A stretch of 64,000 nucleotides of DNA from IMG/VR virus record IMGVR_UViG_3300045988_075599, positions 6,354-70,353 of that record; one strand, written 5' to 3'. Origin of the DNA: a virus. Below are positions 2,343 to 60,667 of the stretch, in pieces. Each line of letters starts with the position of its first letter. The first letter of the stretch is position 1. The notes beneath the pieces are model-generated. The model was not told the DNA's origin. It ran no database searches and worked only from the letters and a program-made list of their open reading frames with translations. A program made the translations under genes and the position numbers.

Positions 2343-4150
2343 TATCTCACCAGCACTTTCACAAACCCATTGTTCTTCTTTTCAATAACAATCCCGACAG
2401 CCTTGTCAGACCAATCTCTTACGGAAATGCCAACACCAGGTTTGCCAGACGGAACTATATATGAACCAAGGCAAGGGTCATCCAAAACTTTAACAGACAC
2501 ACGCCCAACAAGACATACTGGAATAAACCTCTTCATATTATGCTCTACATAGTTTTTTGATGGTTCACCTCCGATTATATGTGCGTAATCACCAGAGACA
2601 ATACCAGCGATTACTTTATCATCAAGCGTAGCTTTTCTGTACCTACCAGTGGTAAGGTCTAATGCAACAATATCGCCAACATCAGCGTCATCGCCTCGCT
2701 CAAACCACTCTGCGTAGTCGTTATATACAGCGTTAAACACCTTAGCTCCGACAACATTGCCACTAGCAGAAATACCACCAGTTACCTGAACATCATTCGC
2801 GGTAAACAAGTTTGAGTCCAGCGTGTTCGTCTCGAACGACCCTGTTGTGATGGAGATTGCATTAACTTCACTTGCTGTAATATTTGTTGCAGAGCACTCT
2901 GACGTATTTACGGAAGTGGAATCGAGCGTACTGGTAGAAACTTTTTCTGTGGAAATGTTACCGTCGATAGTAATCTCATGAGTGGTAATCTTTCTTGCAG
3001 AAAGATTTTGTGTTGACACATCGTTAGATGTAAGAGTTTTAGAGCAAATATTGTTAGCGTGCAAGTCAATACAAGTAGATAGTCCAGAAAATCTATCATT
3101 TACAACAGAGATATTTACGGTATCAGACTGCTTAGATTCGCCAAGTACATCAAAATACTTGAGGTAAACAGAGAGTGTACTATCCGTTGTATAGTATACG
3201 AACTTATCTACAGACGCTCCTACAGAAAACTTCTCTTTGTTGATATAAATATTTGTACCGTTACCGTACTTTGGAGACTTGAACGACAGTTCAACACAAT
3301 ACCTATCATCGTTTTCATTTTTTGTAACTGTGTAAGTTGGAGCTCCTGGTGTAGCTAGTTCTGGGAACGAATATGTAGACGAAGATTCAGAAGAGTATTT
3401 CTTACTAACACCATAGTTCGCCCCGTAAATAGTACCAGTTCTATTCTGTGGTACATACAGGTACGAATAGCCTCTGGACTTAACAATTAAGCCAGAGTCA
3501 GAACCAAAGTTATTGTCATCATCTCTGATTTCAGTATAGATGTAGTATGGACTAGATTGCTGACCCCACTCGATTACAAGTCCATCGGCAGTGGCCGTTG
3601 TTGTCAAATACGCAAGTGGAGTTGTTGCTCTAACTTGAATTGGAATATACATGACATCGAAAGGAGCTTTGCTTTCGTCAGACCTGTTACCATCATCGGT
3701 CACACCAATAACAGAAGCTCTATAAGAATAGCCACTAAGCACATTCTCGATGGTCAAACTAAAAGCGCCGTTGGCAGATTTGTAAATCTTAGAACCAATT
3801 TGGTTCCAGTCTACATTCTGAGAACCTCTAGTTACAGATTGCTGTAAAGTGACAATCGCGTAACTGTATATACGGGAGCCGTTAAACGTACCTTTATCCC
3901 ATGTTAGCACAAGATTATACTGGTCGTTGTCTAGCTCATACCTCATAGAGAAGTTGCCCAACTGGTTACTAATAGTACCAGCAGTTCCTTGAGAGCCGTT
4001 ACCACCACCACCGCTACCTGTGCCAGCGTATGTTGCGATATAGTCAAGGGTTTTTCTCACCGCATCGGAAAACTTACGTCCATCGCCCTGGCTATCTGTA
4101 GGGATAGATGCGACTAGCTGTGCGGCTTGTTTGTTAAAATCTGTAGCCAT
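2342..4150 (-). CDS. tail fibre/spike protein with a Peptidase_G2-like C-terminal (intramolecular chaperone type) domain
   Basis: Gly-rich linker GSGGGGNGSQG, then beta-rich FN3-like repeats. The C-terminal NDYAEWFERGDD...GDIVAL...AGIVSG...VGRVSVKV resembles the DYAExFEW domain of phi29 gp12-type appendages (recognised from memory). Confidence 0.55.
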   Translation of the reverse strand: MATDFNKQAAQLVASIPTDSQGDGRKFSDAVRKTLDYIATYAGTGSGGGGNGSQGTAGTISNQLGNFSMRYELDNDQYNLVLTWDKGTFNGSRIYSYAIVTLQQSVTRGSQNVDWNQIGSKIYKSANGAFSLTIENVLSGYSYRASVIGVTDDGNRSDESKAPFDVMYIPIQVRATTPLAYLTTTATADGLVIEWGQQSSPYYIYTEIRDDDNNFGSDSGLIVKSRGYSYLYVPQNRTGTIYGANYGVSKKYSSESSSTYSFPELATPGAPTYTVTKNENDDRYCVELSFKSPKYGNGTNIYINKEKFSVGASVDKFVYYTTDSTLSVYLKYFDVLGESKQSDTVNISVVNDRFSGLSTCIDLHANNICSKTLTSNDVSTQNLSARKITTHEITIDGNISTEKVSTSTLDSTSVNTSECSATNITASEVNAISITTGSFETNTLDSNLFTANDVQVTGGISASGNVVGAKVFNAVYNDYAEWFERGDDADVGDIVALDLTTGRYRKATLDDKVIAGIVSGDYAHIIGGEPSKNYVEHNMKRFIPVCLVGRVSVKVLDDPCLGSYIVPSGKPGVGISVRDWSDKAVGIVIEKKNNGFVKVLVR

Positions 4151-40964: not shown

Positions 40965-40993
40965 TTGACAAACCTTATTTCCTATGGTATACT
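40965..40993 (+). promoter_or_regulatory. consensus promoter P3, directly upstream of the early genes
   Basis: TTGACA (40965-40970), a 17-nt spacer ending TGg, then TATACT (40988-40993). Confidence 0.75.
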
Positions 40994-42899: not shown

Positions 42900-42907
42900 A
42901 TTAAAAA

Positions 42908-42933
42908 GGGAGGCTTTCGCCTCCCTATTTTTA
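42908..42933. terminator. bidirectional terminator between the early block and the giant gene
   Basis: AAAAA-GGGAGGC-tttc-GCCTCCC-TATTTTTA. Confidence 0.8.
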
Positions 42934-42937
42934 TTGC

Positions 42938-45900
42938 TTAACTCAGCAAGTTACCAAGTGCTCTTACGTCAGAACGTACAATCTCAGCTTCTTCACTCTT
43001 CGATTTAGTTACCATCTTCTCTGCCTGTTCAGCTGTAATCTTTGGCTTGATGTATTTGTCTACTGTCTTGTGTGCCTGTTCTGGTGTCTTGCCATAGTCT
43101 TGCAGTTTCTTGAGATTAGCTTCCGTCGGGTTATTGACGTAAGCAATCATAGCATCCTTAGCCTTGTTAGAGTATTCCTGATTCTCATCGGTGATAAATC
43201 TATTGATATCTGTGTCGAGTTTATTCTCGATTGGGTTAAAGCCCATGAAGTTCTTAGCCCTGTCTGCGTTACTCATAGACTGGTATTCCGTCTTAGGCAT
43301 TAACTTACTGTAAGAATAATACTGACCTCTAGCCGCCTGTAACCATCTCGATGCCGCTGGTACTGCTTTCAACCAAGCGAACATTAACTGGTCTGTCGTG
43401 TACTTGTCGTACAGGATAGCGTCATAGCTTGCACCGACCGCAGAACTGAAATCAATAGCTGTCCCTAACGACGGGCCACCAAGGTTACGTAAGTCTGTCG
43501 GGTCTTTCATGATATCGGAAAGACCTACCTTCTTACTGATATCTACACCTAGCACTGGAGCTGCGATACCATAACACAGTGCTTCGCCGATAGCCTGTGG
43601 TACTGGGCCTCTTTTACCTACTGCTTTCAGGATAAAAGATTTTATCCAGTCCTCTGGGTTCGTACCAGTGATTGCCTGAGACATGCCAGAAATCATAGTC
43701 ATCATCGGGATACCAGAGATAACACCAGAGAACAACATCATTGTTCCAAGGAATCTCTTGAGCTCTGTACTCTTCTTATTCTTGAGCATCCAACTCATAA
43801 AGTCGAAAGTCTGGAACCCGTAAGATGCAAACTGGAACACACACTTAGCAAGCTGTCCGCCTTTAGCCAAAAGCAGTGGGTCTGTTGCTCTGTTGAAGTT
43901 GAAGTTTGTGCGATATACGAAGTCTCTAATCATAAGCATACGCTGCATGTTGTACTCTTCTTCACCAAGCTCCGATTTGCTTTCACGGAACTTCTTGTAC
44001 TTAGGGCTGGTGTCAAGCAGGTGCTGTGCTACCAGTGCCGCAAACAATCTACACGAGAGGTCTGCACCTCTGAATCCACCCATGCCTAAGTTAAGAATAT
44101 TCTTACCAGTCTTTGGCAAGAGGTCGATAACACTATCCCCCTCGTACGCGCTACCAGCGTTACCTAACTGAGCAGCCATATCATTGATTGCTATCTCACT
44201 GTCTTTACCTGTTAATGTTCCGTACATCTCATCGAATGCTTGTAATTCAATAGCAGATTTATCTCCTCGTTTCAGCGCCTCTTGGAATGCGTTCTCCCCT
44301 TCCTGCTCGAACAGACTCTTACCTTGTTTGGTAAGATACAGGTCAGCCATTACCTGCTGAATCTCTTTACCGTATGCGCTTACATCAAACTCGTTTTTCA
44401 AGATGTCAGACGGCTTATGCGCCTTAGCTAAGATACCTGGCATTTTCTTCATCGCATAAGCAAACGCGCTTTCTCCCCCTAGTGCATACACGTTAGCTAA
44501 CTGTGCATACTGTGCGAGTGCTGTACTTACATTGAACATACCGAGTTTCAGATAGACGTTGACTGCGATACTGTTGTGAAGCAATGCAGGAAGCCACATG
44601 TCTGGCAGGTATACACCACATGCGTTCAGGATATTGCGCATACCAGGAACTGCATAGATAGCGTCAACCACCATGACACTGAGTCTTCTCATGAATCCGT
44701 CTACTGGCTTATCTCTACCGTTCATATTATCTACAAGTTCGCACATAATATTGTATGGCGAGTAATAAGAATCTCTCTTAGTTCTATCGTAGTTTCTTCC
44801 TGTGTACTTGTAGATAGTTTGTGTCATATCTCTATAGAACGGAGTCAGTGCCTCAACACTATTTACGGTATGTAAGTAATGCTTCAACGAACCGATAACG
44901 TCATGGGAATACAGTCCATTATCAGATGTACGTTCACGTGAATAGTTGGCTGCTAAATACTGTGCACCACTTGCTTTTAAGGCATCGCTAACTTGCCTAA
45001 ATGTTTGAACTTTGTTTTTGCTTACGCGAATCATCTTAGCTGTGCGAATCAAACGTGGCTTATATTTACCGAACTCTTCTTCGTCTTGCTCGTCCATATT
45101 ACGAAGAGCGTCAATAATTTTCTCAATACTATCTTCGCCTTCCCATTTCTCACTGGCATTGAATTTCTTACGAATGAACTGCGCCAGTCTATCTGGGATG
45201 TCATCAGTAGCGCGATTTTTCCCTTTCTCAATATCTTCATCTGTGAGTGCCCCTATTGATGGGTCAACGTTGCCAACAATATCTGTACGACCACCGCCCT
45301 GTTCTTGCAACCATTCGTCACGTGTCTTTTCTACATACCGTTCGTTTTTCCCGATAGGATGTTCATTTCTGTATTTAGCTCTATCACGTTTACTTTCAAA
45401 AGAACCAATACTGTACGTAATAACCTGATAATACTTACCATCTTTCTGGATGATGAAACCTGCCTTGACAGATTTTGGATTAACCTGCTCTTCATCAATT
45501 TCGTTCCATACTTCTTTCTGAAGGATGTATCTGGAATAATATCTCGGTGCATATGCATGTAAGAACCCAGTCTCGGTACGATTGATGATGTCGTCGTTCT
45601 GCATAGCTCTCTTCTGTTCTCTTGAGTAGGCATTCATCAGTAATGCACGGTACAATGCTTGGCTTGCGATAAATCTATCAATGATAGGCTGAGCATAACC
45701 AGCGTCCTTCATGGCTTTGCGTCTGAAGCGTTCGCACTCTTTCAATACCTGCTTCTGTAATCTAACTTTCATATTGGCTCGACCCTTCACCCCAGTGCCA
45801 TCTTCGTTAGATGGGTGTGCAATGAACAGGTTTTTGAACTTACCATCCTTCATACGTGTATCTGGACATGCATAGAATACTAGCGTACCAGTATCTTCTC

Positions 45901-48900
45901 TGTACCAGAAGGCTTGGTTCTTGTAGAAATTCCTGCCTTTCTTTTTGTAGTATGCTTTCATCTTGTCAATCTTGTCACTCATTGTAGCCATTGCCGTAGC
46001 TTTATCTGGCTGACTATGGAGAACAAAGAATACGTCATCGGCGTATACTTTAAGCATAGCGTTCTTACCAGAAGCAGAACGATTCTTACATCTTTCATCT
46101 TTCCCAGCCTCATACGGAAGGTCAAACAGTTCAACAAGGTCTCTACCTCTATCACTGTTGACATTGATTTCAGTATCAAAATACTGTCTCAGCGCTTTAG
46201 TCTGAAGTTTGTCTCCATCAATCGTAAGAAGCTGCTTCAACTGTTTAATGTAAGCGTCACTCTTCGCGTTGAGTTCCTGCTGCCAAGCAATAGCCCTCTG
46301 TGATTCATCAAAGAGACGGTCAGCGTCTGGCTTTTTGATAAGGTCTTCTAACCATCGCATGCCTGGTTTCCATGCGAGCTTGATATCCTTAGCGTGGTTA
46401 AGTTTACTTGGCGATGTCTGAGTAAACGTTTTGTTGCGTTTGTTCGCGATAGTATACAGTAACTGCATAAACCAACCCTGTGGAGAGCCAGCATCCTGAG
46501 ACACATCACGTACAGTGGTGATAGCCCCTTTGCCAGTGCCAACGCTTGTTTTCTTTGCGCTTTTCTTCTTCTGTTCAACTGTAGCGTGTTGGTTCTTCTG
46601 TGTCTCGAAGTGGTGAGTAATGGTTGTATTATCCATAGCAGTAAGCTCTTGAATAGAATCACGTGCCGCATTGAACAGTTCGTTTCTCATTCTAGCTTTG
46701 TCTTTGTTTCTAATCTTGAACGCTGGGTCTCTACTCTGTAATGCGTGGAGAAGGTTAGTAGATTCATACAACCAAGAAGCCATGAAATTAGATGTCTCAC
46801 TCTCCGCGATATTACCGCCGTTAGTTAGCTCTTCTGGCACGGTATCCAGATGGCTGTACGTTTCCGTGACGAGCTGTTTAATCTGAAAGAGTAACGGAAG
46901 CTTATGGTCGATAACCTTAGCACCAAAGATAATGCTAGGAAGCATCATGTTCATGACCAATGCTTCGTAGTCTCCCTTATCGGAGCTATCGTAGAACAGA
47001 CCAAGGGACTTAGCACCAAGTTTGAGGGTGTATCTATCTCTACCTGTCTTCGTTTCATCATAGCCTACCAAGTTTGATTGCGCCCAAATCTTTGCTGTGG
47101 TCGGGATGAGCTTGGATACATCTACGAGGTCTGTTATTGCCAGTATCTGTCTTGCTAACAGACTATCACTCTTGTTCAAAGTTTCAAAAGCAGAAGTAAG
47201 TTCATTGCTAATTGCATCACGAATAACTTTCTCAGCAACGCCACGTTCTTTGCGAGGGACATCTGGAACATCTTCACTTACACGGAGACCGCCGAAACTA
47301 TCGTAATCTCTATAGGTATCAGACTTCGTTGCCAGTTTATACCTACCTTCTGCTACATCCACTGCTACCGCTTGGTCGGTGAATGCGTGCATCAGTTCGT
47401 GGTACACAGTAGAGCGCTGGGCAAGAGACATCAATCTACCAGTGGAGTCGGTGTACCCACTGTTATCAGATAACTTATTGCTAATGTATGGGATTACACC
47501 AAGTACCTTACTTGCAACATTGACAAACAGCTGATGAGCAAACACGTTGTCTGGTTCACCTTTCAGCGGTGTTGCAAACTCAGTACCTAAGAACGCTTTG
47601 TTCTCTTTGCTAATCTTAAACTCGATTCCTGGTGATATCTCCAGATTCTGAGACTGTACGTTTGCGAGTTCTTCTATGCTACGTGGCTGTAACTTGTGCA
47701 GCTGTGTTCCGACATAGTTCTGAGAATGATAGCGCATTCTAAATGCTACTCTCTTGTTAGTCTGAACAGACTCGAATACTTCTGGTGCCGTATGTACACC
47801 ATGGAGTGCACGATTTAACTGGTCAGCGAAAGTACGAATCTTGTCGAACCCATTCAGCCTCTGTGATGCAATGGTTATCAACGAGCACAGGTTAGCAATA
47901 TCGTTATACGTCAGCGTGTCTTTCTGTGCAAGTCTATAGCTAAACGTGTGTAACGAGGTAATTAAACCACCACTACCCATTAACTTATCGTTATGTGCCA
48001 TCATCAAGTAGTTGTAGTGTGGGTCTTCCATGAGGTCGTCAATAGTAAACGAAATGTCCTTACCGTACTCTTCTTTCAAATCTTTCTTATCGATAGAACC
48101 TAAGAACCGTAGCAGGTTAGCGATAGGATTCTCTGTGATATTCACTTCGTCTTTCGTTGTCCACTTCGTAGAACCAGTGTTGTGAATATCGATGCTGTCA
48201 GCTTTGACCTTCTTAATCGGAGAGTTATCTGTAATCGTCAGAGGTTTTACTCTGTATCCATCTTCTTGGAAATCCATCAGGCCGATGGCACCAAATACTG
48301 CTTTTCTGAGGTCGTTATATACCCAAGAGTTTATATATTTGCTCTCTTCAATCTGCTTATCGCCGTAATTTAATTTCGGAGCGCTACGTACATATACAAA
48401 CTTGCCCTTTTGGTTTTTAACGCCTAACGAAATCTTGTTGATGGTATCACGTAAAGCACTCGGGCCTTCCTTTAAGCCTTTGTTTTTCAGTTTCTTCTGA
48501 ACTTCGTTTCTGCTCTGCGCCGCAATCTCCAACTGTTCCTGCGTCATGAACTTATTAACAGCAGCTTCAATCTTATCCATTATCTGTTTACGGATAATTG
48601 CCTGTTTCTTCTTCCTCTTTTTGGCTACCTGCTTGATGTATTCCTCGATACCATTGTTCATGATAGCTTCTTTCGGAAGCCCAGTATCAAGAACCATCAG
48701 TGCTTTTACGATAACGTTATTAGGGATACCAGAGGCATCCTTTTTGAAGTAGTCATCAGCCAGCGTATCAATAGCACCAACTACGGTACCAGAAGAAACC
48801 AAGTAAGTTACACCATTCTTACCTGTGTTAGTGGAGTATGTTGGATTGTTGACATCAGAACCCTGCTTGATAGCATATGGGTCTGTACGCCTAGAGTTCA

Positions 48901-51900
48901 TAACGTTCGGGTCTGCCAGTGCGTCAACTGTCGTTGCTTCACGTGGAGCAATAGATACCATGTTCTCTGGCTGACAGAACTGGTCAAGCTTATCAGCATC
49001 TTCCTTGAACTGTTTATATTGCTCTGGTGTGAGTACATATCGACGGCCATCGTAGGACACAACACGTTCATCTTTGAGTTCAGCTGCAATCTTGCCTCTC
49101 TTCTCCCCGTTGATGTACTTGTAGATTAACGGGTTGATTCTCGTAGACCTATGCTCCTGTACAGCTCTTTCCGTATACACGTTATGCTCCGTTGCCATCT
49201 TGTTAGCGATGGACTTAATCTTAGCTTCGAGTGCTTTAGAGAACAGTACCGCGTCAACCTTAGTAACCTTACGGTCAAGAGCGAAGCCAAGTCTAAGTGC
49301 GGCATCACTATCAGTCGGATAGGAGTGACCAGTACCTGCCATAGCCGCAGCCAGCACATTGCGTCTAGCTTTGTTAATGGCGTTACCCCATCTGTTAGTG
49401 AACTCGTACTTCGCGGTATCATACTTCTCTTGAGTTACTTCACCTCTCTTGAGTTTTGCCAGAAGTTTTTCACTGCATTTTTCCCAAAGGTTGTTAATCC
49501 ATTTATCCGTGAACTGATTCAATCCTTCTGCTACGTGTTCATCGTAACCTAATGCTTTCATGTTGTGAGCGAAGGTCTCTGTGCTTACCTGTTTACGTTT
49601 ATTATCTCTGCTTACGATAGGCAACATATCACTAATGCTAATCTCATCAAAGTTAAACTTGTTGTCGTTAATAAACTGAGCAACAAATTTACTCTTGTCA
49701 AAGATTTCTGCTGGCATCATCTCGGTAGTAGTCTTAGTGTTGAGCCATGGGAATTTAGAAGTACGTCTAGTAACGAGCTTATTAACTTCCTGACCTTCCA
49801 CACGCATCTTACTGATAATATTCTTACTATAGCTTAACCCGAAGAGTTTCTTACCGATAGGATTGCTCTGAACTTCCTGACAAATCTTATCAAGGCTAGC
49901 GTTAAAGTTTTTCATATTAACGTCCCAGAACTCCTGCCCTGCTAATTTTGTCTTCGCTGTCGGGAAGATACGGTTAATCTTCTGAATCAGAGATTGAGCA
50001 TATGCACGAACTTCATCAGCGTCAGAATCTTTCTTATGCTGAGCAAATTCAGATTCTGCTACATCACCATAGTTATCCAGTACGGTCTTAGTGATGAATG
50101 CAATCATAAGGTTTGCTTTCTCTGTAGAGGAGATGAACGCTCCATCCTGATTCTTCTGCTTTAACATCCGCTTATCGTAACTGTTGTTTAATTCGTTACA
50201 CAGCTGAAGCTCAAACGAAATGATAGACAGATAACGAGCGGCTACTGCTGCTTGGAAGTAGTCAACACTTCTTTCGTTCTGAAGGTTAATGTTGTTGCCG
50301 AAGTCGTAGTTAATCGATGCGGCAGTCTTACGCTGCTCAGTAAGTCCACCACCAGTCATATCACGGCTATGGTCGCCAAAGTCGTTCTCGTCATCACCTT
50401 CGAGCACATCTTTCTTAGCTTTCTGCTCCTGTCTATACTTGAGTTTTGCGGCACGTTCTTTCTCCGCTTTTTCTTTCTCTGCGTCTGTTGTCGGTTTAAT
50501 GTGCTTATCCTTGGCGACTTCTGCCAACTCAAGAGCCTGAAGTAAGATATTAGCTTTAGAAATTGCAACTGCTTTACCCTCTTTGGTCAAGGAGGTATTA
50601 TTGCGAATCATATCCTCGAGTTTATTCATCGTGGCTTTAATGTATTCATCAACCTCAATATCTCTTAATCGAATAGTATGACCAGTGATATCTTTCTGGG
50701 ATTCAAACGCCATCTTCGTAATGAAGGTCTTACCATATTCGTTTGCTTTCTCTTTAATCTCTGGAGATACTTTGCTTACTGCATCAAGGATAATCTTCTG
50801 TTCTGCACTATCAAGATGTTGCATGGTCTGGTAAGTATCAAGCGCCGCTCTACCTTCCGGTGTATTGACAACAGAGAGGAACGCAGTCTTAAATGCTTCC
50901 ATAAATGTACGGCCATACTCACCAATGTAGTCACCAGTTTTTTCAGCCTCTGGTAACAACTCTCTAAGTTTATCTGCGTATGGCCCGCGAACCATTGCAT
51001 TATTGATAGCAAGTACAAGTTCCATACGACCAGTAGTCTTTATGCCAAGCTGCGGTGCACGATTGTCTGGTAACAGCCAAGATAGTACGTCATCAAGTGT
51101 ATTGATACCATATTCACGAAGTTCCTTTGGTGTATGGAGCAACCCCATCCACTGAATAGCATCCAATGCCGCGCGTCTTTCTTCTCTTGTCTTTGCATTA
51201 GCACCAGGGAGTAAGTCACCAACTACAGAATACAGCTGCTTAGAATCAAACTTTGGTAGGATAAGACCGCTATCGGCACGGTGTCTAATGTACTGCTGGT
51301 AGTTGTGTTCAAGAACATAGTAGAACCAAGTGTTGAGGCTGGCAACGCTTTGCGCTTTACCATTCTTAGCGCTGTTTTCCATACTCTTACGAACACCGTC
51401 ATATGTGGCAATGGCTGTATGGATAGCACCAGGGATGATATCAAGCAAATCGGCATAACCCTGTGCAAACGATTCTTGATTATCGAAGTCAACAATACCA
51501 TTACGATTAGCGCCAGTAGCTACAGACATACGGTTACGCAGTACGTTAATACCAAAGGACGCAAGGGAACCGAAGAGTGCAGTGTAATGCATCTTAGCAC
51601 GGAACTCTTCTTTTTTTTTTTTAATGATACGGCGACCACCGAGATAGCTAATGTACGTTCTTGCGTCTGGTAACATGCTAATAAGGTTAGCAAAAGACAT
51701 CTTGTTCATGGTGGCGTAATACTTACTTACGAAGCTCTGCATATCGCGTTTAAGTTTACCATTGCGGTATGTGTTGAACTTCTTGTTAGCCTTTTCGTCC
51801 TTAGATTCCTGACTAATGAAGTGGTGCGTGAGGGTTCCATTGTCATTGTTATCTGTCTCTACTGCCTGTGTTTCTGCCTTGTTATGATTCCGAAGCATTT

Positions 51901-54900
51901 TAGAAAGAGCAGCCATAGATGTATGTAACTCTTCAAGACCAGACTCAATATCATTATCGTAATTAACAATCTCGTTCTGCGTATCCTCATCCTCGTTACC
52001 ACCATCATCTTTGTACAGCGGGCTTTCCTCTTCTTCTTTTGTTTTCTTTTCTTTCGACTGAAGCTTACGAGGTTTAGCTTCTTCTTTATTATCTTTCCTC
52101 TTCTCCTCCTGCTTTACTTCCTTCGAGACAGTTTGTTCTGCACGGGCTTCGGAACCTTCTGCTTCGCTGCTCGTCCCATTGTCGTTGAGCCGCCCCTGCT
52201 GATGTGTGTTCCCCCCAGTTTCTGTCCTGGTTTCTGTCTGGTTGTCTGTACTACCTTCGGTGTTTTCGGATGTTTGAGTGTCTTCATTTTTTCCTCCTGT
52301 TGAAATATTCGTAACTGGTGTATTTACCTTATCCTTTTGCGTGATAGTAACTGCACCTTTATTATCAGCAACGCTAATAGTATCCTTAGTGCCGTCTTCT
52401 TTGTCAATGTCAACAACTCTATTGTAATCGTCATCAGAGACCTTCTTCAAAATGCTCACAGCCATGGACTTTGCGGTGTCTTCATTTGCTCTCTTAAAAA
52501 GTTCCCAAGCATTTTTTGACAGATTTACGTAGCCAGCTTTATTGAGCTGACCGATAATCTCACGAGCGTGACTTAATCCATTTGGCTTGTTAATATTCGC
52601 GATAACATTAGCTTTAGAATTTTCGTTAGTATCTACACTCTCTGTTGCTGGCTGGGTAGTTTTACCTACTCCCTGAGACACCTTCATTTCTGCTGTTGAA
52701 TAACTTTGATTTGCAGCATTTTGAGTATTCTGTGCTGCTTGCGTCGGAGTTACCTGCGCTTCCTGTGGTCTTGCCATACCACTAAGAGGAGATGCATTAT
52801 TTCCTTCTGTCGGTGCAGGTGTCTGTGGCTGTTCTGCTTCTTTCTGTGGAACGGCTTCCTGTTTTACCTCAACAGGTTTCTGTACTTTCTGCTGAGCTTC
52901 CTCTACGACTGGCTGTTCTACTGGTACATCAGCAACATCCTCAACAGGCTTCTGTTCCTGTTTATTCTTAGCCACCATATATGCGTTCGGGTCAACGGCT
53001 CTAAGCACATCTCGAATAGCTTTAGTGTCGCCATTGTTTGCTCTATCAAGAAGCGGTTGATTAACTTTCAGGAATCTGCTCTTGGTTTTATCTGCCAGCT
53101 CTTCAGCCTTACCGTTCGGAGCCAGAGAATGAATAATGTCCTGTGCTTTCTGGACAGCTTCTGTGTCAGCATCTTCCTTACCAACACCCTTAATGACATT
53201 TTTAATATCATCTTTTGTTGCATCTAATTCCTGCTTTGCCTGTTTAGCCTGAGCTTTTCTTTCGTTATTACGTTCCCTGATAGCCTGTACTACGTTCTTT
53301 CTATCAAGGTTGGACAGAATATAATAAGCAGCGTTGGTGTCACCCTGCACCGCTTTATTTAACAGTTCGGGAGAGAGCTTTGTATCTCCCTCTGGAATAT
53401 TCTTATTGATTGCATCAATGTCAGCATTGTTGTACGCTCTAGTGAGGATATCTGGCAAATCTGCCATCTTAGCTCTAGTAGAGTCAACAACCGCAGACAT
53501 CGGGTCTTCCAGTGGAGCTGTCCGCGTATCTATATTCATGTCCCTATTCTTATCTATATTCGGTGCGGGGGATATAACTTTAAGCTGCTGTGGTGGTTCA
53601 AGTGCTTCAGGTTCTTTTGGTAAGAACGGAATAGCATCTTCAACCTGTTGTTCAGAACCACTTGTATACTCTGGATTAACAAGATAGCCCGCAAGAGACA
53701 TAGAATTGTCTGTAACTGGCTCCTGCACAGGAGGCAGTGCTTCTGGTGTAATGTAATGTCCAATATAGTCAGACAGGTCTGTGCTATCTGCAAGAGCGTT
53801 AGCAATACCCGTTGTCTGCATCAGGTCATTGTAGTCGCGTTTAGCTTCTACCGTCGGGCCAAGAGAATCAATGTTGTTATACAGATAACGCCCTACATTA
53901 CGTGCACCAGCTACACCAACACCAGATACAAGGGTCGGTAAGAATGCAGAGTTGAACGAATTGATTTCGTCGTCAGTGAAGTTATTCCAATCACCATTTG
54001 AGATATCGCGGAAGAAACTACCAGCGTCAGCACGGTCGTCATCAAACTTATTAGCCATGGCATCCTGTACACGCTGCTGCCATGCTTCCTGAAAGCCTTC
54101 ACCAAATGCGTTTGCAACTCTATTACCAATGAAGTCGATAGGTTTACTAGCCGTAGACAGGCCATATGCAGCTCGTCCAAGTAAGGTGTCTGCACGCGCA
54201 GTATCACCCAGTACCGCACCAGCTACCTTACCACCATTAGATGCAAGAGCGTCAGCAATACCAGCTTTTGCAAGACCTTTGCCAGCAAGGGAGAACAGAC
54301 CACCAGTAGCACCAGTAGCTACATCAAGAGCAGTGTCCATAAAGGAAGAACCAATAAGTTCTGCGTTCTTGTATGGGTCGCCAGTAAAGCTATCCCATGC
54401 TGCTTGGTCAATATCTCCGTCGTATACAGTACCAGTCGGTCTCTGCCCTGCTTTAATCTGTGCTTCGATATTGTCTCTCTTCGCGTCCATGTAACTCTGT
54501 CCGAAGTTAGCACCAACTTCAAGACCAGCACTACCTAAGACGGCAAGAGCAGGAAGAACCGCACCACCGCCAGCGGCTAATGCGGCACCTGCCAACATAC
54601 CAGGAGCAGACGAACCAAGCATAGTGCCAGCGTCACTGTAAAGACCGTGTGGGTCAAGGAAGTATCCAAGAGACCAACGAGACTTATCTGGGTTGTTGTC
54701 ATAGTCGTTAGCCCAGTCAGAGTATCTTGCCGCCTGTCTTGTCAGGTCGCCACCGACTCCCGCTAACCACGGACTATCCGATACTACTCCAACAGCAGTT
54801 AAAGCCCCACCGAGTGTAGACTCGGCAGAGCTTGTAAGACTGTCCCAAAAACTACCAAAGATATTCTGGTCTGGGTCACGTTCAGACGGAACCCAACCAA

Positions 54901-54991
54901 GAGCCAGCTTATCTTGGTATTGTCTGTCTGCCTGGTCTAACGCAGCAGCGAGCTGTGCCCCTGGCTGATAATTATTAAACCTTACTGCCAT
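42938..54991 (-). CDS. giant 4017-aa virion-associated (ejection/polyvalent-type) protein with an HExxH motif
   Basis: A single uninterrupted ORF with SD GAAGGAGGT. It has a Gly/Ala-rich hydrophobic N-terminus, an E/K/Q/T low-complexity region, YHELMHAF (H2531-H2535, nt 47387-47401) and hydrophobic C-terminal segments. It lies next to the lytic transglycosylase gene. Confidence 0.6.
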   Translation of the reverse strand: MAVRFNNYQPGAQLAAALDQADRQYQDKLALGWVPSERDPDQNIFGSFWDSLTSSAESTLGGALTAVGVVSDSPWLAGVGGDLTRQAARYSDWANDYDNNPDKSRWSLGYFLDPHGLYSDAGTMLGSSAPGMLAGAALAAGGGAVLPALAVLGSAGLEVGANFGQSYMDAKRDNIEAQIKAGQRPTGTVYDGDIDQAAWDSFTGDPYKNAELIGSSFMDTALDVATGATGGLFSLAGKGLAKAGIADALASNGGKVAGAVLGDTARADTLLGRAAYGLSTASKPIDFIGNRVANAFGEGFQEAWQQRVQDAMANKFDDDRADAGSFFRDISNGDWNNFTDDEINSFNSAFLPTLVSGVGVAGARNVGRYLYNNIDSLGPTVEAKRDYNDLMQTTGIANALADSTDLSDYIGHYITPEALPPVQEPVTDNSMSLAGYLVNPEYTSGSEQQVEDAIPFLPKEPEALEPPQQLKVISPAPNIDKNRDMNIDTRTAPLEDPMSAVVDSTRAKMADLPDILTRAYNNADIDAINKNIPEGDTKLSPELLNKAVQGDTNAAYYILSNLDRKNVVQAIRERNNERKAQAKQAKQELDATKDDIKNVIKGVGKEDADTEAVQKAQDIIHSLAPNGKAEELADKTKSRFLKVNQPLLDRANNGDTKAIRDVLRAVDPNAYMVAKNKQEQKPVEDVADVPVEQPVVEEAQQKVQKPVEVKQEAVPQKEAEQPQTPAPTEGNNASPLSGMARPQEAQVTPTQAAQNTQNAANQSYSTAEMKVSQGVGKTTQPATESVDTNENSKANVIANINKPNGLSHAREIIGQLNKAGYVNLSKNAWELFKRANEDTAKSMAVSILKKVSDDDYNRVVDIDKEDGTKDTISVADNKGAVTITQKDKVNTPVTNISTGGKNEDTQTSENTEGSTDNQTETRTETGGNTHQQGRLNDNGTSSEAEGSEARAEQTVSKEVKQEEKRKDNKEEAKPRKLQSKEKKTKEEEESPLYKDDGGNEDEDTQNEIVNYDNDIESGLEELHTSMAALSKMLRNHNKAETQAVETDNNDNGTLTHHFISQESKDEKANKKFNTYRNGKLKRDMQSFVSKYYATMNKMSFANLISMLPDARTYISYLGGRRIIKKKKEEFRAKMHYTALFGSLASFGINVLRNRMSVATGANRNGIVDFDNQESFAQGYADLLDIIPGAIHTAIATYDGVRKSMENSAKNGKAQSVASLNTWFYYVLEHNYQQYIRHRADSGLILPKFDSKQLYSVVGDLLPGANAKTREERRAALDAIQWMGLLHTPKELREYGINTLDDVLSWLLPDNRAPQLGIKTTGRMELVLAINNAMVRGPYADKLRELLPEAEKTGDYIGEYGRTFMEAFKTAFLSVVNTPEGRAALDTYQTMQHLDSAEQKIILDAVSKVSPEIKEKANEYGKTFITKMAFESQKDITGHTIRLRDIEVDEYIKATMNKLEDMIRNNTSLTKEGKAVAISKANILLQALELAEVAKDKHIKPTTDAEKEKAEKERAAKLKYRQEQKAKKDVLEGDDENDFGDHSRDMTGGGLTEQRKTAASINYDFGNNINLQNERSVDYFQAAVAARYLSIISFELQLCNELNNSYDKRMLKQKNQDGAFISSTEKANLMIAFITKTVLDNYGDVAESEFAQHKKDSDADEVRAYAQSLIQKINRIFPTAKTKLAGQEFWDVNMKNFNASLDKICQEVQSNPIGKKLFGLSYSKNIISKMRVEGQEVNKLVTRRTSKFPWLNTKTTTEMMPAEIFDKSKFVAQFINDNKFNFDEISISDMLPIVSRDNKRKQVSTETFAHNMKALGYDEHVAEGLNQFTDKWINNLWEKCSEKLLAKLKRGEVTQEKYDTAKYEFTNRWGNAINKARRNVLAAAMAGTGHSYPTDSDAALRLGFALDRKVTKVDAVLFSKALEAKIKSIANKMATEHNVYTERAVQEHRSTRINPLIYKYINGEKRGKIAAELKDERVVSYDGRRYVLTPEQYKQFKEDADKLDQFCQPENMVSIAPREATTVDALADPNVMNSRRTDPYAIKQGSDVNNPTYSTNTGKNGVTYLVSSGTVVGAIDTLADDYFKKDASGIPNNVIVKALMVLDTGLPKEAIMNNGIEEYIKQVAKKRKKKQAIIRKQIMDKIEAAVNKFMTQEQLEIAAQSRNEVQKKLKNKGLKEGPSALRDTINKISLGVKNQKGKFVYVRSAPKLNYGDKQIEESKYINSWVYNDLRKAVFGAIGLMDFQEDGYRVKPLTITDNSPIKKVKADSIDIHNTGSTKWTTKDEVNITENPIANLLRFLGSIDKKDLKEEYGKDISFTIDDLMEDPHYNYLMMAHNDKLMGSGGLITSLHTFSYRLAQKDTLTYNDIANLCSLITIASQRLNGFDKIRTFADQLNRALHGVHTAPEVFESVQTNKRVAFRMRYHSQNYVGTQLHKLQPRSIEELANVQSQNLEISPGIEFKISKENKAFLGTEFATPLKGEPDNVFAHQLFVNVASKVLGVIPYISNKLSDNSGYTDSTGRLMSLAQRSTVYHELMHAFTDQAVAVDVAEGRYKLATKSDTYRDYDSFGGLRVSEDVPDVPRKERGVAEKVIRDAISNELTSAFETLNKSDSLLARQILAITDLVDVSKLIPTTAKIWAQSNLVGYDETKTGRDRYTLKLGAKSLGLFYDSSDKGDYEALVMNMMLPSIIFGAKVIDHKLPLLFQIKQLVTETYSHLDTVPEELTNGGNIAESETSNFMASWLYESTNLLHALQSRDPAFKIRNKDKARMRNELFNAARDSIQELTAMDNTTITHHFETQKNQHATVEQKKKSAKKTSVGTGKGAITTVRDVSQDAGSPQGWFMQLLYTIANKRNKTFTQTSPSKLNHAKDIKLAWKPGMRWLEDLIKKPDADRLFDESQRAIAWQQELNAKSDAYIKQLKQLLTIDGDKLQTKALRQYFDTEINVNSDRGRDLVELFDLPYEAGKDERCKNRSASGKNAMLKVYADDVFFVLHSQPDKATAMATMSDKIDKMKAYYKKKGRNFYKNQAFWYREDTGTLVFYACPDTRMKDGKFKNLFIAHPSNEDGTGVKGRANMKVRLQKQVLKECERFRRKAMKDAGYAQPIIDRFIASQALYRALLMNAYSREQKRAMQNDDIINRTETGFLHAYAPRYYSRYILQKEVWNEIDEEQVNPKSVKAGFIIQKDGKYYQVITYSIGSFESKRDRAKYRNEHPIGKNERYVEKTRDEWLQEQGGGRTDIVGNVDPSIGALTDEDIEKGKNRATDDIPDRLAQFIRKKFNASEKWEGEDSIEKIIDALRNMDEQDEEEFGKYKPRLIRTAKMIRVSKNKVQTFRQVSDALKASGAQYLAANYSRERTSDNGLYSHDVIGSLKHYLHTVNSVEALTPFYRDMTQTIYKYTGRNYDRTKRDSYYSPYNIMCELVDNMNGRDKPVDGFMRRLSVMVVDAIYAVPGMRNILNACGVYLPDMWLPALLHNSIAVNVYLKLGMFNVSTALAQYAQLANVYALGGESAFAYAMKKMPGILAKAHKPSDILKNEFDVSAYGKEIQQVMADLYLTKQGKSLFEQEGENAFQEALKRGDKSAIELQAFDEMYGTLTGKDSEIAINDMAAQLGNAGSAYEGDSVIDLLPKTGKNILNLGMGGFRGADLSCRLFAALVAQHLLDTSPKYKKFRESKSELGEEEYNMQRMLMIRDFVYRTNFNFNRATDPLLLAKGGQLAKCVFQFASYGFQTFDFMSWMLKNKKSTELKRFLGTMMLFSGVISGIPMMTMISGMSQAITGTNPEDWIKSFILKAVGKRGPVPQAIGEALCYGIAAPVLGVDISKKVGLSDIMKDPTDLRNLGGPSLGTAIDFSSAVGASYDAILYDKYTTDQLMFAWLKAVPAASRWLQAARGQYYSYSKLMPKTEYQSMSNADRAKNFMGFNPIENKLDTDINRFITDENQEYSNKAKDAMIAYVNNPTEANLKKLQDYGKTPEQAHKTVDKYIKPKITAEQAEKMVTKSKSEEAEIVRSDVRALGNLLS

Positions 54992-55008: not shown

Positions 55009-56484
55009 TTAAAAGAATCTATTTACAATTTGTCCTTGTGATACCATGTTTTCTGTTGCGTTCATGGAATTTTGTACATCTCCTAATGTCACGGGTTTTC
55101 CATCCGCAGTAGTACCAACGATTGTGTTAGTGAATGTATCAAGCAACCCTTGATTTACATTGTTCTGTGCGTCTTGGTCTGCTGGGTTTGTGCCAGCTGG
55201 ATGTGACATCTCCTGAGACTGAGAAATAATCGACGCGGCAATGTTGTCGATCAGTTCATTAGCTGTACCTCTTCTACCAGTCTGCTCCATCATCATACCG
55301 TAGTCCGCTATCTTCTTTAATGCGGACTGTGTGGCAAGGTTACGAGCCTCAGTAGTAGAGCTTGGGTCCCAGATAATATTCTGAGCTTGTTTGAACTCTG
55401 GGCTATTGATTAACTTATCAACATTGTTTTTAATACTATCCTCATCTTCCACTACATATCCAAGAGGAGAACCGCTACTACCAGCAGAAGAAGCAGTACC
55501 ACCTTTTCCTTTACTATAAGAACCGCCATTGATAATAGCTGCGACTCTTGCTTTTTGCAATTCAAATTCTCTATCCTTATTTGCTTGTTCCTGTGCTGCT
55601 TTATACGCATTATTATTAAGTGTCATCTGTTGTCCAATCATTGCACCAAGGTCTGCCAGCTTCTTACTATTCGGGTCAAACTGTACACCAGTAAGAGCTG
55701 CACCAAGTTTGGCAAGAATGGCAATATTAGCGGTGTTATTACTCTTTGCAATTTGGTCAGCGAACTGCGCGGCCATTGTTTTCTGCATGTTCTTGTTGTC
55801 GATGGTGGCACCAGTGTGAGTAGCATCGGCAGACATCTTGTTAATCAAATCGAAGAAACGCTGGTTGCGATTGTGAGCGCCCATAGCTGCCGCTGTAATT
55901 TCTGGGGCTTGTCTCTGTAAATAGTCATTGAGGATTCTACGTTCTGGATTGATAGTCGGCTGGTTCACCATCTTGTTGATGAAATCCATTGGCAGTTGTT
56001 CATTCGGGTCGTTGAACTTACCGCCAGATTTGATGTAAGCGCCAATCAGATTTGTCTGATAAGGTGAGCCATTACTAGAAATAGAGTTTGGATTTGCACC
56101 AAGCATACCCATTACGTCCGATGTGTATTTGTCAATAGATGTCCCATTGCCATCAGTAAAGTCTCCATTACCAATGTTGCCTTCACCGCCAAGCCATGCT
56201 TGTACAGCACCCTTGACGCCATGTTTGTCAATCAAATCTGCCATGTATGCATGTGCTACTGCCTCTTGATTTGATGGCGACCAGTCCGTGCCATCAAGAC
56301 CGTGTTGTTCCGCGGCTCCTTCAAACGTTGAAGGCATAAACTGGTACTTACCACGAGCACCAGAGTCAGCAATAACGTTATATGGGTCTTCCTCGCCACC
56401 AGATTCTCTCTGGGCAATAGCTTGAAGTACCGAGTCAACAACGTTGTACTGCTGTCCTTCATTAAAGAAATCTGTAGCTGCCAT
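55009..56484 (-). CDS. virion-associated lytic transglycosylase (SLT domain) protein
   Basis: AIAQRESGGEEDPYNVIADSGARGKYQFMPSTF, an SLT catalytic Glu-Ser motif, at the N-terminus. Confidence 0.75.
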   Translation of the reverse strand: MAATDFFNEGQQYNVVDSVLQAIAQRESGGEEDPYNVIADSGARGKYQFMPSTFEGAAEQHGLDGTDWSPSNQEAVAHAYMADLIDKHGVKGAVQAWLGGEGNIGNGDFTDGNGTSIDKYTSDVMGMLGANPNSISSNGSPYQTNLIGAYIKSGGKFNDPNEQLPMDFINKMVNQPTINPERRILNDYLQRQAPEITAAAMGAHNRNQRFFDLINKMSADATHTGATIDNKNMQKTMAAQFADQIAKSNNTANIAILAKLGAALTGVQFDPNSKKLADLGAMIGQQMTLNNNAYKAAQEQANKDREFELQKARVAAIINGGSYSKGKGGTASSAGSSGSPLGYVVEDEDSIKNNVDKLINSPEFKQAQNIIWDPSSTTEARNLATQSALKKIADYGMMMEQTGRRGTANELIDNIAASIISQSQEMSHPAGTNPADQDAQNNVNQGLLDTFTNTIVGTTADGKPVTLGDVQNSMNATENMVSQGQIVNRFF

Positions 56485-60235: not shown

Positions 60236-60667
60236 CTACAGTAATTTGTAAAACAATCCGATGAAGTCTTTGTTGCCAACAACACTGACATCGTGGTATT
60301 CAATATCAATAGCTGGCTTGACTTTATCATCCAAGTACACCAAGCCGATACTAGCGTTTACCGTTTTCGGCTTCAACCTTTTCAATTCTTTCTTCGATTC
60401 GGTCAAGGATTTCTGAAGTTGATTGTTCGATTCTTCGGCTTTCGTCAACGCCACTCTCGATTCGTCCAGTTGTTTCTTTAGCGTTGTCAACTCCTGCTTC
60501 TGCTTTTCCAATGTTGCCAGCTGTTTCTTGTTGTTGCTCCTCAGCTGCGTCAAGTCTTGTTTGAAGTCTGTCCAATCTTTCTGACTGATAGTCATATCCG
60601 CAGCTGAAGCCACTGATGAAGCAGACAAGAGCAAGCACGAAGATAACAATAGCACGTTTAATTTCAT
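60236..60667 (-). CDS. secreted/lipobox-like coiled-coil protein candidate, frame B (overlaps frame A over about 320 nt)
   Basis: MKLNVLLLSSCLLLSASSVASAAD, then heptad-like QLATLEKQKQELTTLKKQLDESRVALTKAEE. It starts 7 nt downstream of the frame A start. Confidence 0.4.
   Translation of the reverse strand: MKLNVLLLSSCLLLSASSVASAADMTISQKDWTDFKQDLTQLRSNNKKQLATLEKQKQELTTLKKQLDESRVALTKAEESNNQLQKSLTESKKELKRLKPKTVNASIGLVYLDDKVKPAIDIEYHDVSVVGNKDFIGLFYKLL

Follow-up and report, generated by a model that had tools for sequence, protein, structure and literature searches.

Genomic context of the giant gene

The window analyzed here, i.e., the whole stretch of 64,000 nucleotides, carries on its minus strand a 12-kb open reading frame (P0001, 42938..54991) that encodes 4017 amino acids in a single uninterrupted frame and closes the late block, as the preliminary description of this DNA had reported. 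The ORF is a real gene. Intact homologues of 3598-4247 aa are known from many contigs of 64-72 kb, and more than 100 near-complete phage contigs of ~70 kb carry the ORF intact. One relative has a database entry of its own, a metagenome-assembled genome named 'Caudoviricetes sp.', and all close relatives are metagenomic; residues 1101-4017 had no match by megablast or tblastn among 50,697 phage records.

A strong RBS (GAAGGAGG) lies 6 nt upstream of the ATG of the giant gene, which is the final gene of the late operon and starts 17 nt past the gene of a lytic transglycosylase. The latter (55009..56484, minus strand) is found upstream of every homologue examined. Its product of 491 aa has an SLT domain at the N-terminus (PF01464, E 1e-8) and is likely the partner ejection protein of the giant. 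The transglycosylase gene is preceded by a Gly-rich ORF of 371 aa (15% G) and an N/Q-rich ORF of 243 aa (28% N+Q), so that the three neighbors named in the preliminary description were all recovered. Sister phages whose giant proteins are only 24-38% identical have kept the same arrangement of genes, namely GH25, ~513 aa, ~130 aa, 243 aa, ~390 aa, SLT, giant. The giant gene comes after the lysis genes, outside the block of head and tail genes. The portal is ~30% identical to those of LUZ24/tf podoviruses. Between the giant stop codon and the convergent plus-strand genes there is a bidirectional hairpin resembling an intrinsic terminator (42907..42926), with an 8-bp stem including 6 G-C pairs and T runs on both strands. 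The neighboring plus-strand operon is headed by a near-consensus sigma-70 promoter (11/12, with TG), hence the phage can use the host RNA polymerase.

Two conserved modules around a replaced middle

The giant protein consists of a conserved N-terminal module (aa 1-400), a middle of ~1700 aa, and a conserved C-terminal module (aa 2817-4017); all features described below lie on the minus strand. The N-terminal module (53792..54991) is 73-98% identical among relatives and contains an invariant EGFQEAWQQRVQDA block. It matches the syntenic sister proteins P0123 and P0124 with an E-value of 1e-103, although their middles are unrelated. Its Gly/Ala-rich character, noted early on by eye, amounts to 33-36% Gly+Ala over residues 100-300. 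It matches no Pfam or NCBIfam family and, when used alone as a query, retrieved only fragments of the same protein. An uncharged hydrophobic stretch of 37 residues (aa 121-157; 54521..54631) is the sole segment of the protein above a Kyte-Doolittle value of 1.6, the classical threshold for transmembrane hydrophobicity. There follows a low-complexity linker rich in E/K/Q/T/P (aa ~430-1050; 51842..53704), which is variable in length and aligns at 17-60% identity with many gaps. This region had also been described before, and E/K/Q/T/D/N indeed make up 46-66% of residues 500-1100.

The central part (aa 1060-2788; 46628..51814) is mostly helical and evolves fast: its identity drops to 21-55% while the two ends hold 75-97%. 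In the syntenic sister phages the N- and C-terminal modules are kept and the middle is replaced beyond recognition, since no similarity could be detected between the middle of P0001 and those of P0123, P0124, and P0125. An HExxH motif is its only recognizable domain-type feature. In agreement with the initial reading of a center without a recognized family, the middle gave no match in Pfam, PHROG, NCBIfam, PDB, Foldseek, or BFVD. Scans of the whole protein (Pfam, PHROGs, NCBIfam, PDB sequences) were equally empty, and the tail-700 match described in the next section was found only by a windowed NCBIfam scan. The AF2 models of two 1200-aa segments had mean pLDDT values of 56-58, were mainly helical in both cases according to DSSP, and found no PDB match with Foldseek (for aa 1617-2816, pLDDT 56 and best E 0.7). 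Fast evolution and wholesale swapping between sister phages would be expected of a part that faces variable host targets or defences.

One might ask if this middle hides a virion RNA polymerase like that of coliphage N4, or another nucleic-acid enzyme. N4 is a ~70-kb podovirus in which the giant gene, gp50 (3500 aa), is the last of the late operon after smaller ejection proteins, as here. The two proteins also share a layout: the N-terminal domain is hydrophobic, cargo occupies the middle, and an HExxH subdomain is followed by a large region, helical and of unknown fold, with ~1.3-1.5 thousand residues after the HExxH. The N4 polymerase has an N-terminal domain that associates with membranes, and its C-terminal domain bears the HExxH (PMC13434306). 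In spite of this likeness, the idea was already disfavored and we regard it as highly improbable. Unlike N4 gp50, P0001 has no RNA polymerase domain; a search of the giant protein for RNA polymerase, NTPase, helicase, and methylase motifs found none, and PHROG, Pfam, and PDB gave no match. Foldseek was negative for the model covering aa 1617-2816, and hhalign to N4 gp50 gave a probability below 1%. The sigma-70 promoter mentioned above, which makes the host polymerase usable, also speaks against a polymerase of the phage's own.

The C-terminal module and the PLxRFG / tail-700 family

The C-terminal module (42941..46543) is 52-97% identical in closer relatives and matches P0123 and P0124 with E-values of 1e-219 to 1e-229. 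Its AF2 model is confident only for aa ~2877-3350, with a pLDDT below 50 in the tail domain. A Foldseek search with the module in BFVD retrieved the C-terminal parts of further giant proteins from phages (E 1.6e-7, probability 1.0). The preliminary description had suggested, with low confidence, a resemblance to PLxRFG-domain giant proteins, and a remote match to the PLxRFG / tail-700 family (NF032893) was indeed found at aa 3688-3966 (43094..43930), over profile positions 342-641 of 681. It scored 44 bits with E 1.8e-13 (per genome), and 42.9 bits with E 2.3e-11, i.e., less than half of the curated cut-off of 100 bits over a model of ~681 positions, about half of which is covered. For comparison, gp60 of Pseudomonas phage H66 and gp62 of Vibrio phage douglas 12A4 reach ~800 bits (675-802 when SopranoGao is included).

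The match lies at the extreme C-terminus, stopping 51 residues short of the stop codon. Stretches homologous to the last ~320 residues were found in 138 cluster representatives of 200-4838 aa, in every case at the extreme C-terminus. In alignment A2, the family site aPxxFRrG / PLxRFG is occupied by DPLLLAKGG (aa 3704-3712; 43856..43882), a degenerate version of the signature in which P and G are kept while R and F are lost. Residues D3704, P3705, and G3712 are invariant in alignments A1 and A3. The segment NRATDPLLLAKGG...QF..Y aligns with the core block of the family, NFDY..DaPn.FRrG...QFKKY, and further blocks are kept around the signature (NFNFNR, QF..YG, GIP, YG...P..G.DIS, GP, GF.P). An uncharged hydrophobic stretch of 25 residues, FLGTMMLFSGVISGIPMMTMISGMS (aa 3747-3771; 43679..43753; Kyte-Doolittle 1.48), aligns with the family block FW..y.LlaGl.GIP. 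Together with a weaker stretch at aa 3800-3818 it is what remains of the 'several' hydrophobic segments initially assigned to the C-terminal region, both being under the 1.6 threshold. Comparing the clade tails (A3) with those of H66, douglas, and SopranoGao, hhalign gave a probability of 64% (E 6e-5, 256 columns), and 19% against SopranoGao alone. A profile made of three full NF032893 members matches 77 of the 138 tail representatives, but not P0001 at E <= 1e-3.

A tail homology to the C-terminus of N4 gp50 was tried and rejected. N4 has no NF032893 match, and three profile comparisons were non-significant (probabilities of 0.2-0.7%), the last of them opposing 129 family tails to 7 Schitoviridae tails. 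The same motif region of N4 (LPGRFRG...WFYNFKIRS...GNVGLP, aa 3407-3473) was aligned repeatedly, a motif-level resemblance that we keep as a lead only.

With a probability of roughly 0.7, we consider that P0001 serves an uncultured podovirus of ~70 kb as its giant internal virion (ejection) protein and is a divergent member of the PLxRFG-tail class. Hardies et al. (2016) placed this class in the extended T7 gp16 (IVP-D) family, through joins that required stepwise HMM-HMM merging (PMC4819975). Among the IVP-D homologues that carry domains destined for the cytoplasm are H66 gp60, F116 p60, douglas gp62, epsilon15 gp17, and N4 gp50 with its C-terminal domain (PMC4819975). The link of P0001 to IVP-D runs only through the F116-group tail (NF032893), and neither the T7 gp16 entries nor any other PDB chain has detectable sequence similarity to the giant protein. 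The gene occupies a slot of the IVP-D type, with a conserved SLT gene adjoining upstream and a mainly helical product by AF2 and DSSP. Membership in the PLxRFG-tail / IVP-D class is supported as a remote one, by homology and synteny only, and to that extent so is the preliminary reading as an ejection protein. We infer from the same data that the protein is packaged in the virion.

Very unlikely, in comparison, is a function outside of the virion interior, as an intracellular late scaffold, shell, or anti-defence factor, or as an external component of the tail or fibers. It would suit a giant gene that sits behind the lysis genes instead of among those for head and tail. Yet the giant genes of SopranoGao and H66 likewise adjoin the lysis cassette, and H66 gp60 (3787 aa), to which the tail domain of P0001 is remotely similar, has a GenBank note according to which mass spectrometry verified it as a virion component. 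The conserved pairing with the SLT gene and a predicted structure that is mainly helical, without beta-rich fiber or Ig repeats, also argue against it. Homology of the whole protein to a tape-measure family, which would have contradicted the ejection reading, was searched for; tape-measure matches appeared only at E > 0.05, and a tape-measure or tail-fiber homologue was rejected.

A conserved HExxH motif at a fixed distance from the C-terminus

The HELMH found by the first reading at residues 2531-2535 (nt 47387-47401) is the sole HExxH of the giant protein, for an expectation of 0.044 from its composition. It is followed by an acidic residue, D2545, in an HExxH-x9-[DE] arrangement (47357..47401). 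In alignment A1, H2531, E2532, H2535, and D2545 do not vary even where identity is as low as 24%, which answers the question of conservation raised with the motif; YHELMH is present in all relatives read, and relative L016 has E in place of D2545. Lying downstream of the HExxH, D2545 may be the third, acidic metal ligand.

The position of the motif is shared with other giants. Among 56 giant phage proteins, HExxH occurs 1.18 times per protein versus 0.059 expected, and 50 of the 56 have it 940-2003 residues (median 1264) before the C-terminus. The distance is 1486 residues in P0001, 1490 and 1294 in H66 (~1300-1500 in its group), 1272 in N4 gp50, and 1083 in SopranoGao gp6. No zincin or peptidase family model of Pfam or NCBIfam matches the giant protein, the AF2 pLDDT near HELMH is ~50 or less, and a clade HMM of the HExxH region matched its training sequences only, not the HExxH region of any other lineage among the giants.

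The preliminary description had proposed a metallopeptidase-like effector. Following this idea, the HExxH domain would be injected and would cleave host proteins, e.g., components of defence or of the envelope. The invariance of the catalytic-type residues and their location within the fast-evolving middle are compatible with it, but the distance to the C-terminus is fixed in spite of unrelated cargo, H66 gp60 and N4 gp50 included, as for a chassis part, and among the toxin and effector peptidase families of Pfam and NCBIfam none is similar. We find an effector unlikely, and this part of the early proposal is not supported in its original form. Because its distance to the C-terminus is fixed across the class, including the C-terminal domain of N4 gp50, the HExxH is more suggestive of the chassis, for delivery or processing, than of cargo. 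Most likely, HExxH-x9-D is a putative zincin-type chassis module for processing or packaging, and probably not a toxin aimed at the host. In phage polyvalent proteins no domain is more frequent than zincin-like peptidases, which have been proposed to process these proteins (PMC5512222).

Paired junction motifs at the borders of the middle

Two similar motifs flank the middle, each after an acidic or polar linker and before a Lys-rich stretch. S1 (TLTHHFIS, aa 1052-1059; 51815..51838) pairs better with S2 than any other 8-mer of the protein does, with a score of 38. S2 (TITHHFET, aa 2789-2796; 46604..46627) stands directly ahead of the conserved C-terminal module. The tetrapeptide THHF thus occurs twice, at residues 1055 and 2792, as first described. 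Its reading as a general junction or processing site did not hold, since it is limited to one sub-clade: it is missing from L007, L008, and clades B-E, and THHF was rejected as a conserved motif. Repeated tetrapeptides are not enriched overall in the protein (117 observed versus 109 +/- 9 in shuffles).

The pairing of the two sites extends somewhat further than the tetrapeptide. In a sister clade both sites have changed together (NGTLTHHFISQ / NTTITHHFETQ versus DDEDLTDKLVIQ / DKEELTDRLEIK). The 8-mer matching S2 best is no more than 5 residues away from S1 in clades A, A2, and B, with scores of 38, 38, and 29 for a background of 23-28, and the two are mutual best matches only in clades A and B. 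Clades C, D, and E, as well as L014, L016, P0123, P0124, and P0125, show no likeness of the two sites beyond the background, and the S1-S2 diagonal sum comes only 4th among 120 permutations. A recent gene conversion is unlikely to explain it, because only 9 nt are identical between S1 and S2 in the DNA.

These sites could point to a self-processing polyprotein, in which the HExxH peptidase would cut at S1 (~1055) and S2 (~2792) and free a center of ~1740 aa in the capsid or after ejection. The location of the sites with their linkers and Lys-rich stretches, the position of the best partner of S2 in the three clades, the joint change of a motif that differs by clade, and the short DNA identity all fit such a scheme, and it has been proposed that peptidase modules of this type autoprocess polyvalent proteins, P1 DdrB being the precedent (PMC5512222). 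The lack of signal in the other clades and the modest rank of the diagonal sum tell against it, as does the fact that AF2 and Foldseek did not confirm a peptidase fold for the HExxH region. Moreover, the N4 virion RNA polymerase, whose HExxH is placed in the same way, is packaged without processing (PMC5512222). We give self-processing a minor but real chance; it refines the explanation as an ejection protein and does not exclude it. A bolder version is doubtful: the middle would be a new kind of injected cargo, exchanged as a cassette among presumed gut phages that are otherwise syntenic, and the embedded peptidase would excise it from the chassis used for delivery at the two junction motifs, co-evolving with the cassette. 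If true, this lineage would amount to a programmable 'protein-injection vector' made by nature, with payloads that excise themselves. S1 and S2 provide a pair of candidate processing sites.

Proposed delivery model and comparison with known giant proteins

If P0001 is an ejection protein, a few copies would be packed in the capsid via the C-terminal module, i.e., the HExxH region and the ~1500 residues ending in tail-700. At infection, the largely helical and loosely folded chain would be ejected through the tail, after or with the separate SLT protein that opens the peptidoglycan. The hydrophobic stretches at aa 121-157 and 3747-3771 might then insert in the cytoplasmic membrane and complete the DNA conduit, the ~1700-residue middle would arrive in the cytoplasm, and the HExxH-x9-D zincin-type module would act in processing or packaging.

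The closest known counterparts are H66 gp60, F116 p59/p60, and douglas gp62, which are giant proteins encoded, like P0001, by the last gene of the virion operon, adjoining the lysis genes. They share the C-terminal tail-700 and the mainly helical structure. P0001 differs from them by its 43 bits over half the model, by an N-terminal module that has no similarity in the H66 group, and by the lack of a recognizable cargo domain where H66 has a SAM-methylase-like site. The presence of H66 gp60 in virions is on record, whereas the P0001 lineage is known from sequence only. Gp6 of Klebsiella phage SopranoGao (like other Lastavirus giants a 495-kDa 'PLxRFG protein' or DarB-like polyvalent protein) has 4369 aa, takes 19% of a podovirus genome of ~62 kb, and is found at the end of the structural operon. 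Its tail-700 scores 675 bits, and its single chain comprises an SLT domain (46-141), an Eco57I-type methylase, a ResIII/SNF2 helicase, and LPD39. In contrast, the P0001 lineage has the SLT as a separate gene and lacks methylase, helicase, and LPD39.

P0001 also resembles the polyvalent proteins of Iyer et al. (2017) by its late-gene context, the zincin-type HExxH hub module, the mosaic internal replacement, and the predicted packaging and injection (PMC5512222). That class is defined by at least two recognizable disparate domains per chain; P0001 has the HExxH motif only, and none of the Pfam LPD and MPTase-PolyVal models matches it. The protein is most likely an enzyme-poor variant within a known class of giant proteins, which enter the particle and are injected into the host together with the DNA, and knowledge of the class itself is unchanged by the finding. 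Giant PLxRFG-tail or polyvalent proteins represent 15-22% of the coding capacity in many podoviruses. This lineage displays a bare chassis, with two conserved ends and a fixed-distance HExxH around a fully replaced middle, so that 'delivery' and 'payload' sequence are separated more cleanly than in the enzyme-laden relatives.

Burkholderia phage JC1 gp69, considered as a relative verified by mass spectrometry, was dropped to an analogue only, having no NF032893 match at E <= 1 and no similarity to the tail alignment. The DarB-like giants of its type in Lessievirus (JC1 gp69, Bcep22 gp75) have been verified in virions by mass spectrometry (PMC9144972). They have 4515-4602 aa, take 22% of the genome, bear methylase-helicase cargo, unlike P0001, and have their HExxH 1050 residues from the C-terminus.

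The giant protein is a probable remote member of a family of ejection proteins

The giant open reading frame is real: it encodes 4017 aa on the minus strand (42938-54991), and a ribosome-binding site (GAAGGAGG) lies 6 nt ahead of its start. A scan of the whole protein against NCBIfam gave no match. Both a genome search and a windowed scan matched aa 3688-3966 to positions 342-641 of the 681 of NF032893 (tail-700, PLxRFG domain-containing protein), with 43-44 bits (E 2e-11 to 2e-13) against a curated cut-off of 100 bits. An exhaustive search with aa 2818-4017 retrieved 138 cluster representatives of 200 to 4838 aa. The tail match is always at their extreme C-terminus and, in all but four, is confined to the last ~320 residues. 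When the protein was aligned with short members, the stretch whose resemblance to PLxRFG had been suspected in the preliminary description (NRATDPLLLAKGG..QF..Y) fell on the core block of the family. The signature is degenerate, with P and G retained and R and F gone.

Full members of NF032893 include gp6 of Klebsiella phage SopranoGao (4369 aa, 675 bits), gp60 of Pseudomonas phage H66 (3787 aa, 802 bits), and gp62 of Vibrio phage douglas 12A4 (794 bits). A profile of these three tails matches 77 of the representatives retrieved by the tail of the giant protein, and hhalign aligns the latter's clade with them over 256 columns (Prob 64%, E 6e-5). AF2 modelled only part of aa 2818-4017 with confidence (mean pLDDT 58, below 50 in the tail domain). 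The model has no PDB match; its BFVD matches are to the C-terminal parts of other giants encoded by phages (E 1.6e-7 at probability 1.0, and E 8e-4). Tape-measure proteins appeared in BFVD only at E > 0.05, and we rejected homology to them. We conclude that the giant protein belongs to the tail-700 family remotely, scoring below its threshold.

The GenBank note of H66 gp60 reads "verified by mass spectrometry as part of the virion". Hardies et al. 2016 (PMC4819975) assign H66 gp60, F116 p60, douglas gp62, and BcepMigl gp69, as well as epsilon15 gp17 and the N4 gp50 C-terminal domain, to the internal virion proteins of an extended T7 gp16 (IVP-D) family. JC1 gp69, of the Bcep22 group, was also verified in virions by mass spectrometry (PMC9144972), but is only an analogue because it has no NF032893 match. 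The portal of our phage is ~30% identical to LUZ24/tf podovirus portals, and a podovirus needs ejection proteins. The initial interpretation is supported in part: remote homology and synteny favor the proposed ejection class, and we infer that the protein may be packaged, ejected, inserted in membranes, and involved in proteolysis. SopranoGao gp6 represents the enzyme-rich form of these giants, with SLT (lytic transglycosylase), Eco57I-type methylase, ResIII/SNF2 helicase, HExxH, and LPD39 ahead of the tail; Iyer et al. 2017 (PMC5512222) call such giants polyvalent proteins. The giant protein is an enzyme-poor variant of this known class, and the variant is what is new.

The composition profile agrees with the earlier one. 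Of the C-terminus described as membrane-like, what stands is aa 3747-3771 (Kyte-Doolittle 1.48) and aa 3800-3818, and the sole segment above the classical hydrophobicity threshold is aa 121-157 (Kyte-Doolittle 1.83).

Conserved ends surround an exchangeable middle

A word-indexed search returned 191 homologues. The best 120 of these are 3829-4084 aa long, apart from one 2489-aa fragment, are 69-100% identical, and mostly lie on contigs of 60-72 kb. One homologue is labelled in nr "MAG TPA: PLxRFG domain protein [Caudoviricetes sp.]". Three sources provided full-length relatives at a greater distance: IMG/VR and ENA assemblies (L014, 42% identical, and L016, 28%), the 50%-cluster library (P0122-P0125, 53-32% identical across the C-terminal 1200 aa), and a search seeded with P0123.

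Identity varies strongly from one part of the protein to another: the relative at L007 is 70-87% identical at aa 1-400 and 2900-4017, and 24-67% at aa 400-2900. P0123, P0124, and P0125 share with the giant protein both the N-module (aa 1-400, best E 1e-104) and the C-module (aa 2817-4017, best E 1e-229), and phmmer found no similarity to it in the ~1500 residues between. Despite these unrelated middles, their genomes retain the gene order: GH25, ORFs of 104, ~513, 129, 243, and ~391-399 aa, SLT, the giant gene, small genes on the opposite strand, and DnaE. The SLT-giant pair is also present in L016. Among close relatives, identities in the N-module, middle, and C-module are discordant (91/97/85% in L017, 97/55/87% in L010, with L023 likewise compared), which suggests that recombination, breaking the gene close to the two linkers, has reassorted the modules. 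Given the conserved ends, the replaced middle, and these discordant identities, the giant protein is a two-ended conserved chassis around an exchangeable middle.

Motifs of the Walker, DEAD, methylase, and RNAP types are absent from the middle (aa 1060-2788), which matches no family, no PDB entry, and, in the model of aa 1617-2816, no Foldseek target. P0123 and P0124 have no entry in the precomputed Pfam field, and a scan of P0125 found nothing. The rate of change and the wholesale replacement of the middle suggest that it may engage variable host factors.

In the sister phage with P0123, gene calling splits the DnaE-type polymerase in two (L034:21636-24744; 390 aa and 579+ aa, ~350 nt apart), which may reflect an intervening element or a frameshift. 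It is a single ~960-aa gene in the window and in L035.

The HExxH motif is common among giant proteins

HELMH is found at aa 2531, as first described, and YHELMH is retained in every relative that we read. Conservation in homologues is borne out by a five-protein alignment reaching down to 24% identity, where H2531, E2532, H2535, and D2545 are invariant in a region otherwise barely alignable; L016 has E in place of D2545. We took a census of 56 giants of more than 2000 aa: 53 representatives, SopranoGao gp6 (L031:3115-16224), N4 gp50 (L032:9524-20026), and JC1 gp69 (L037:3124-16671), with H66 gp60 (L045:17646-29009) considered separately. HExxH is present in 50 of the 56, at 1.18 per protein versus 0.059 expected from composition. 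In these 50, 940-2003 residues (median 1264) separate the last HExxH from the C-terminus, and this spacing also holds in giants without any NF032893 match. The distance is 1486 in the giant protein, 1272 in N4 gp50, and 1490 and 1294 in H66. The C-terminal domain of N4 gp50 has been divided into an HExxH subdomain, C1, and C2, which is helical, ~110 kDa in size, and of unknown fold (PMC13434306). Given this layout and the similar distances across giants, the HExxH looks like part of a shared delivery or processing chassis rather than a lineage-specific effector. The effector peptidase initially proposed is not established. Attempts to confirm a zincin fold gave no support: the HExxH region matched no peptidase model, its AF2 confidence is ~50 or less, Foldseek returned nothing, and a clade HMM of the region found no other lineage.

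We compared the C-module, 20 short tails, and 129 family tails with N4 gp50 or a seven-member alignment of Schitoviridae tails, and hhalign gave Prob 0.2-0.7% throughout. Both family-tail profiles align the same stretch at the extreme C-terminus of N4 gp50 (aa 3407-3473, L032), LPGRFRG...WFYNFKIRSIKV...FGNVGLP, always without significance (Prob < 1%). There, LPGRFRG...WFYNFKIRS...GNVGLP of N4 pairs with PxxFRrG...QFKKYpIK...aGl.GIP of the tail-700 core block, a possible likeness that we treat as a lead only.

Two possibly related sites flank the middle

THHF occurs twice, at aa 1055 (S1) and 2792 (S2), matching the first description, and the two sites flank the exchangeable middle. THHF is missing in L007 and L008 as well as in clades B-E, and repeated tetrapeptides are not enriched in the giant protein, which rules out THHF as a family motif. 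When a best 8-mer partner for the S2 window was sought across the entire protein, it fell no more than 5 residues from S1 in clades A, A2, and B, with scores of 38, 38, and 29 over a background of 23-28. The motif changes between clades at both sites together, from NGTLTHHFISQ / NTTITHHFETQ in clade A to DDEDLTDKLVIQ / DKEELTDRLEIK in clade B, and the DNA of the two sites is identical over 9 nt only. Judged by these likenesses, S1 and S2 are not independent of each other. The likeness is marginal in clade C and was not found in lineages other than A, A2, B, and C; the S1-S2 diagonal sum comes 4th among 120 permutations. This weak, lineage-restricted similarity does not establish the sites as processing sites; it fits a shared recognition, e.g., by the embedded candidate peptidase.

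Operon and genome context

On the circular map, the giant gene is the last of a long minus-strand late operon. The operon starts with terminase, portal, scaffold, and capsid, continues with tail fibres with radical-SAM genes and the GH25 endolysin, then has ORFs of 514, 136, 243 (N/Q-rich), and 371 (Gly-rich) aa, and ends with the 491-aa SLT protein and the giant gene. Adjoining the endolysin, a 143-aa Leu/Lys-rich protein (60236-60667) matches DUF2570 weakly (E 4e-5, short of the cut-off). It may be spanin-like or an accessory to lysis, a role that would suggest a host with a Gram-negative-type envelope. The terminator-like hairpin at 42907-42926, 11 nt beyond the end of the giant frame and before the convergent plus-strand genes, has a perfect, G+C-rich 8-bp stem and T runs on both strands. 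It is likely a bidirectional terminator closing both operons. The convergent operon is headed by a near-consensus sigma-70 promoter at 40965-40993 (TTGACA, 17 nt, TATACT, with a TG extension). The virus record is 70,353 bp long and classed complete. Its "direct terminal repeat" is an exact 55-bp overlap (genome 1-55 and 70299-70353). It is less likely to be a physical repeat at the termini than a k-mer overlap left by the assembler on a genome that is circular or permuted.
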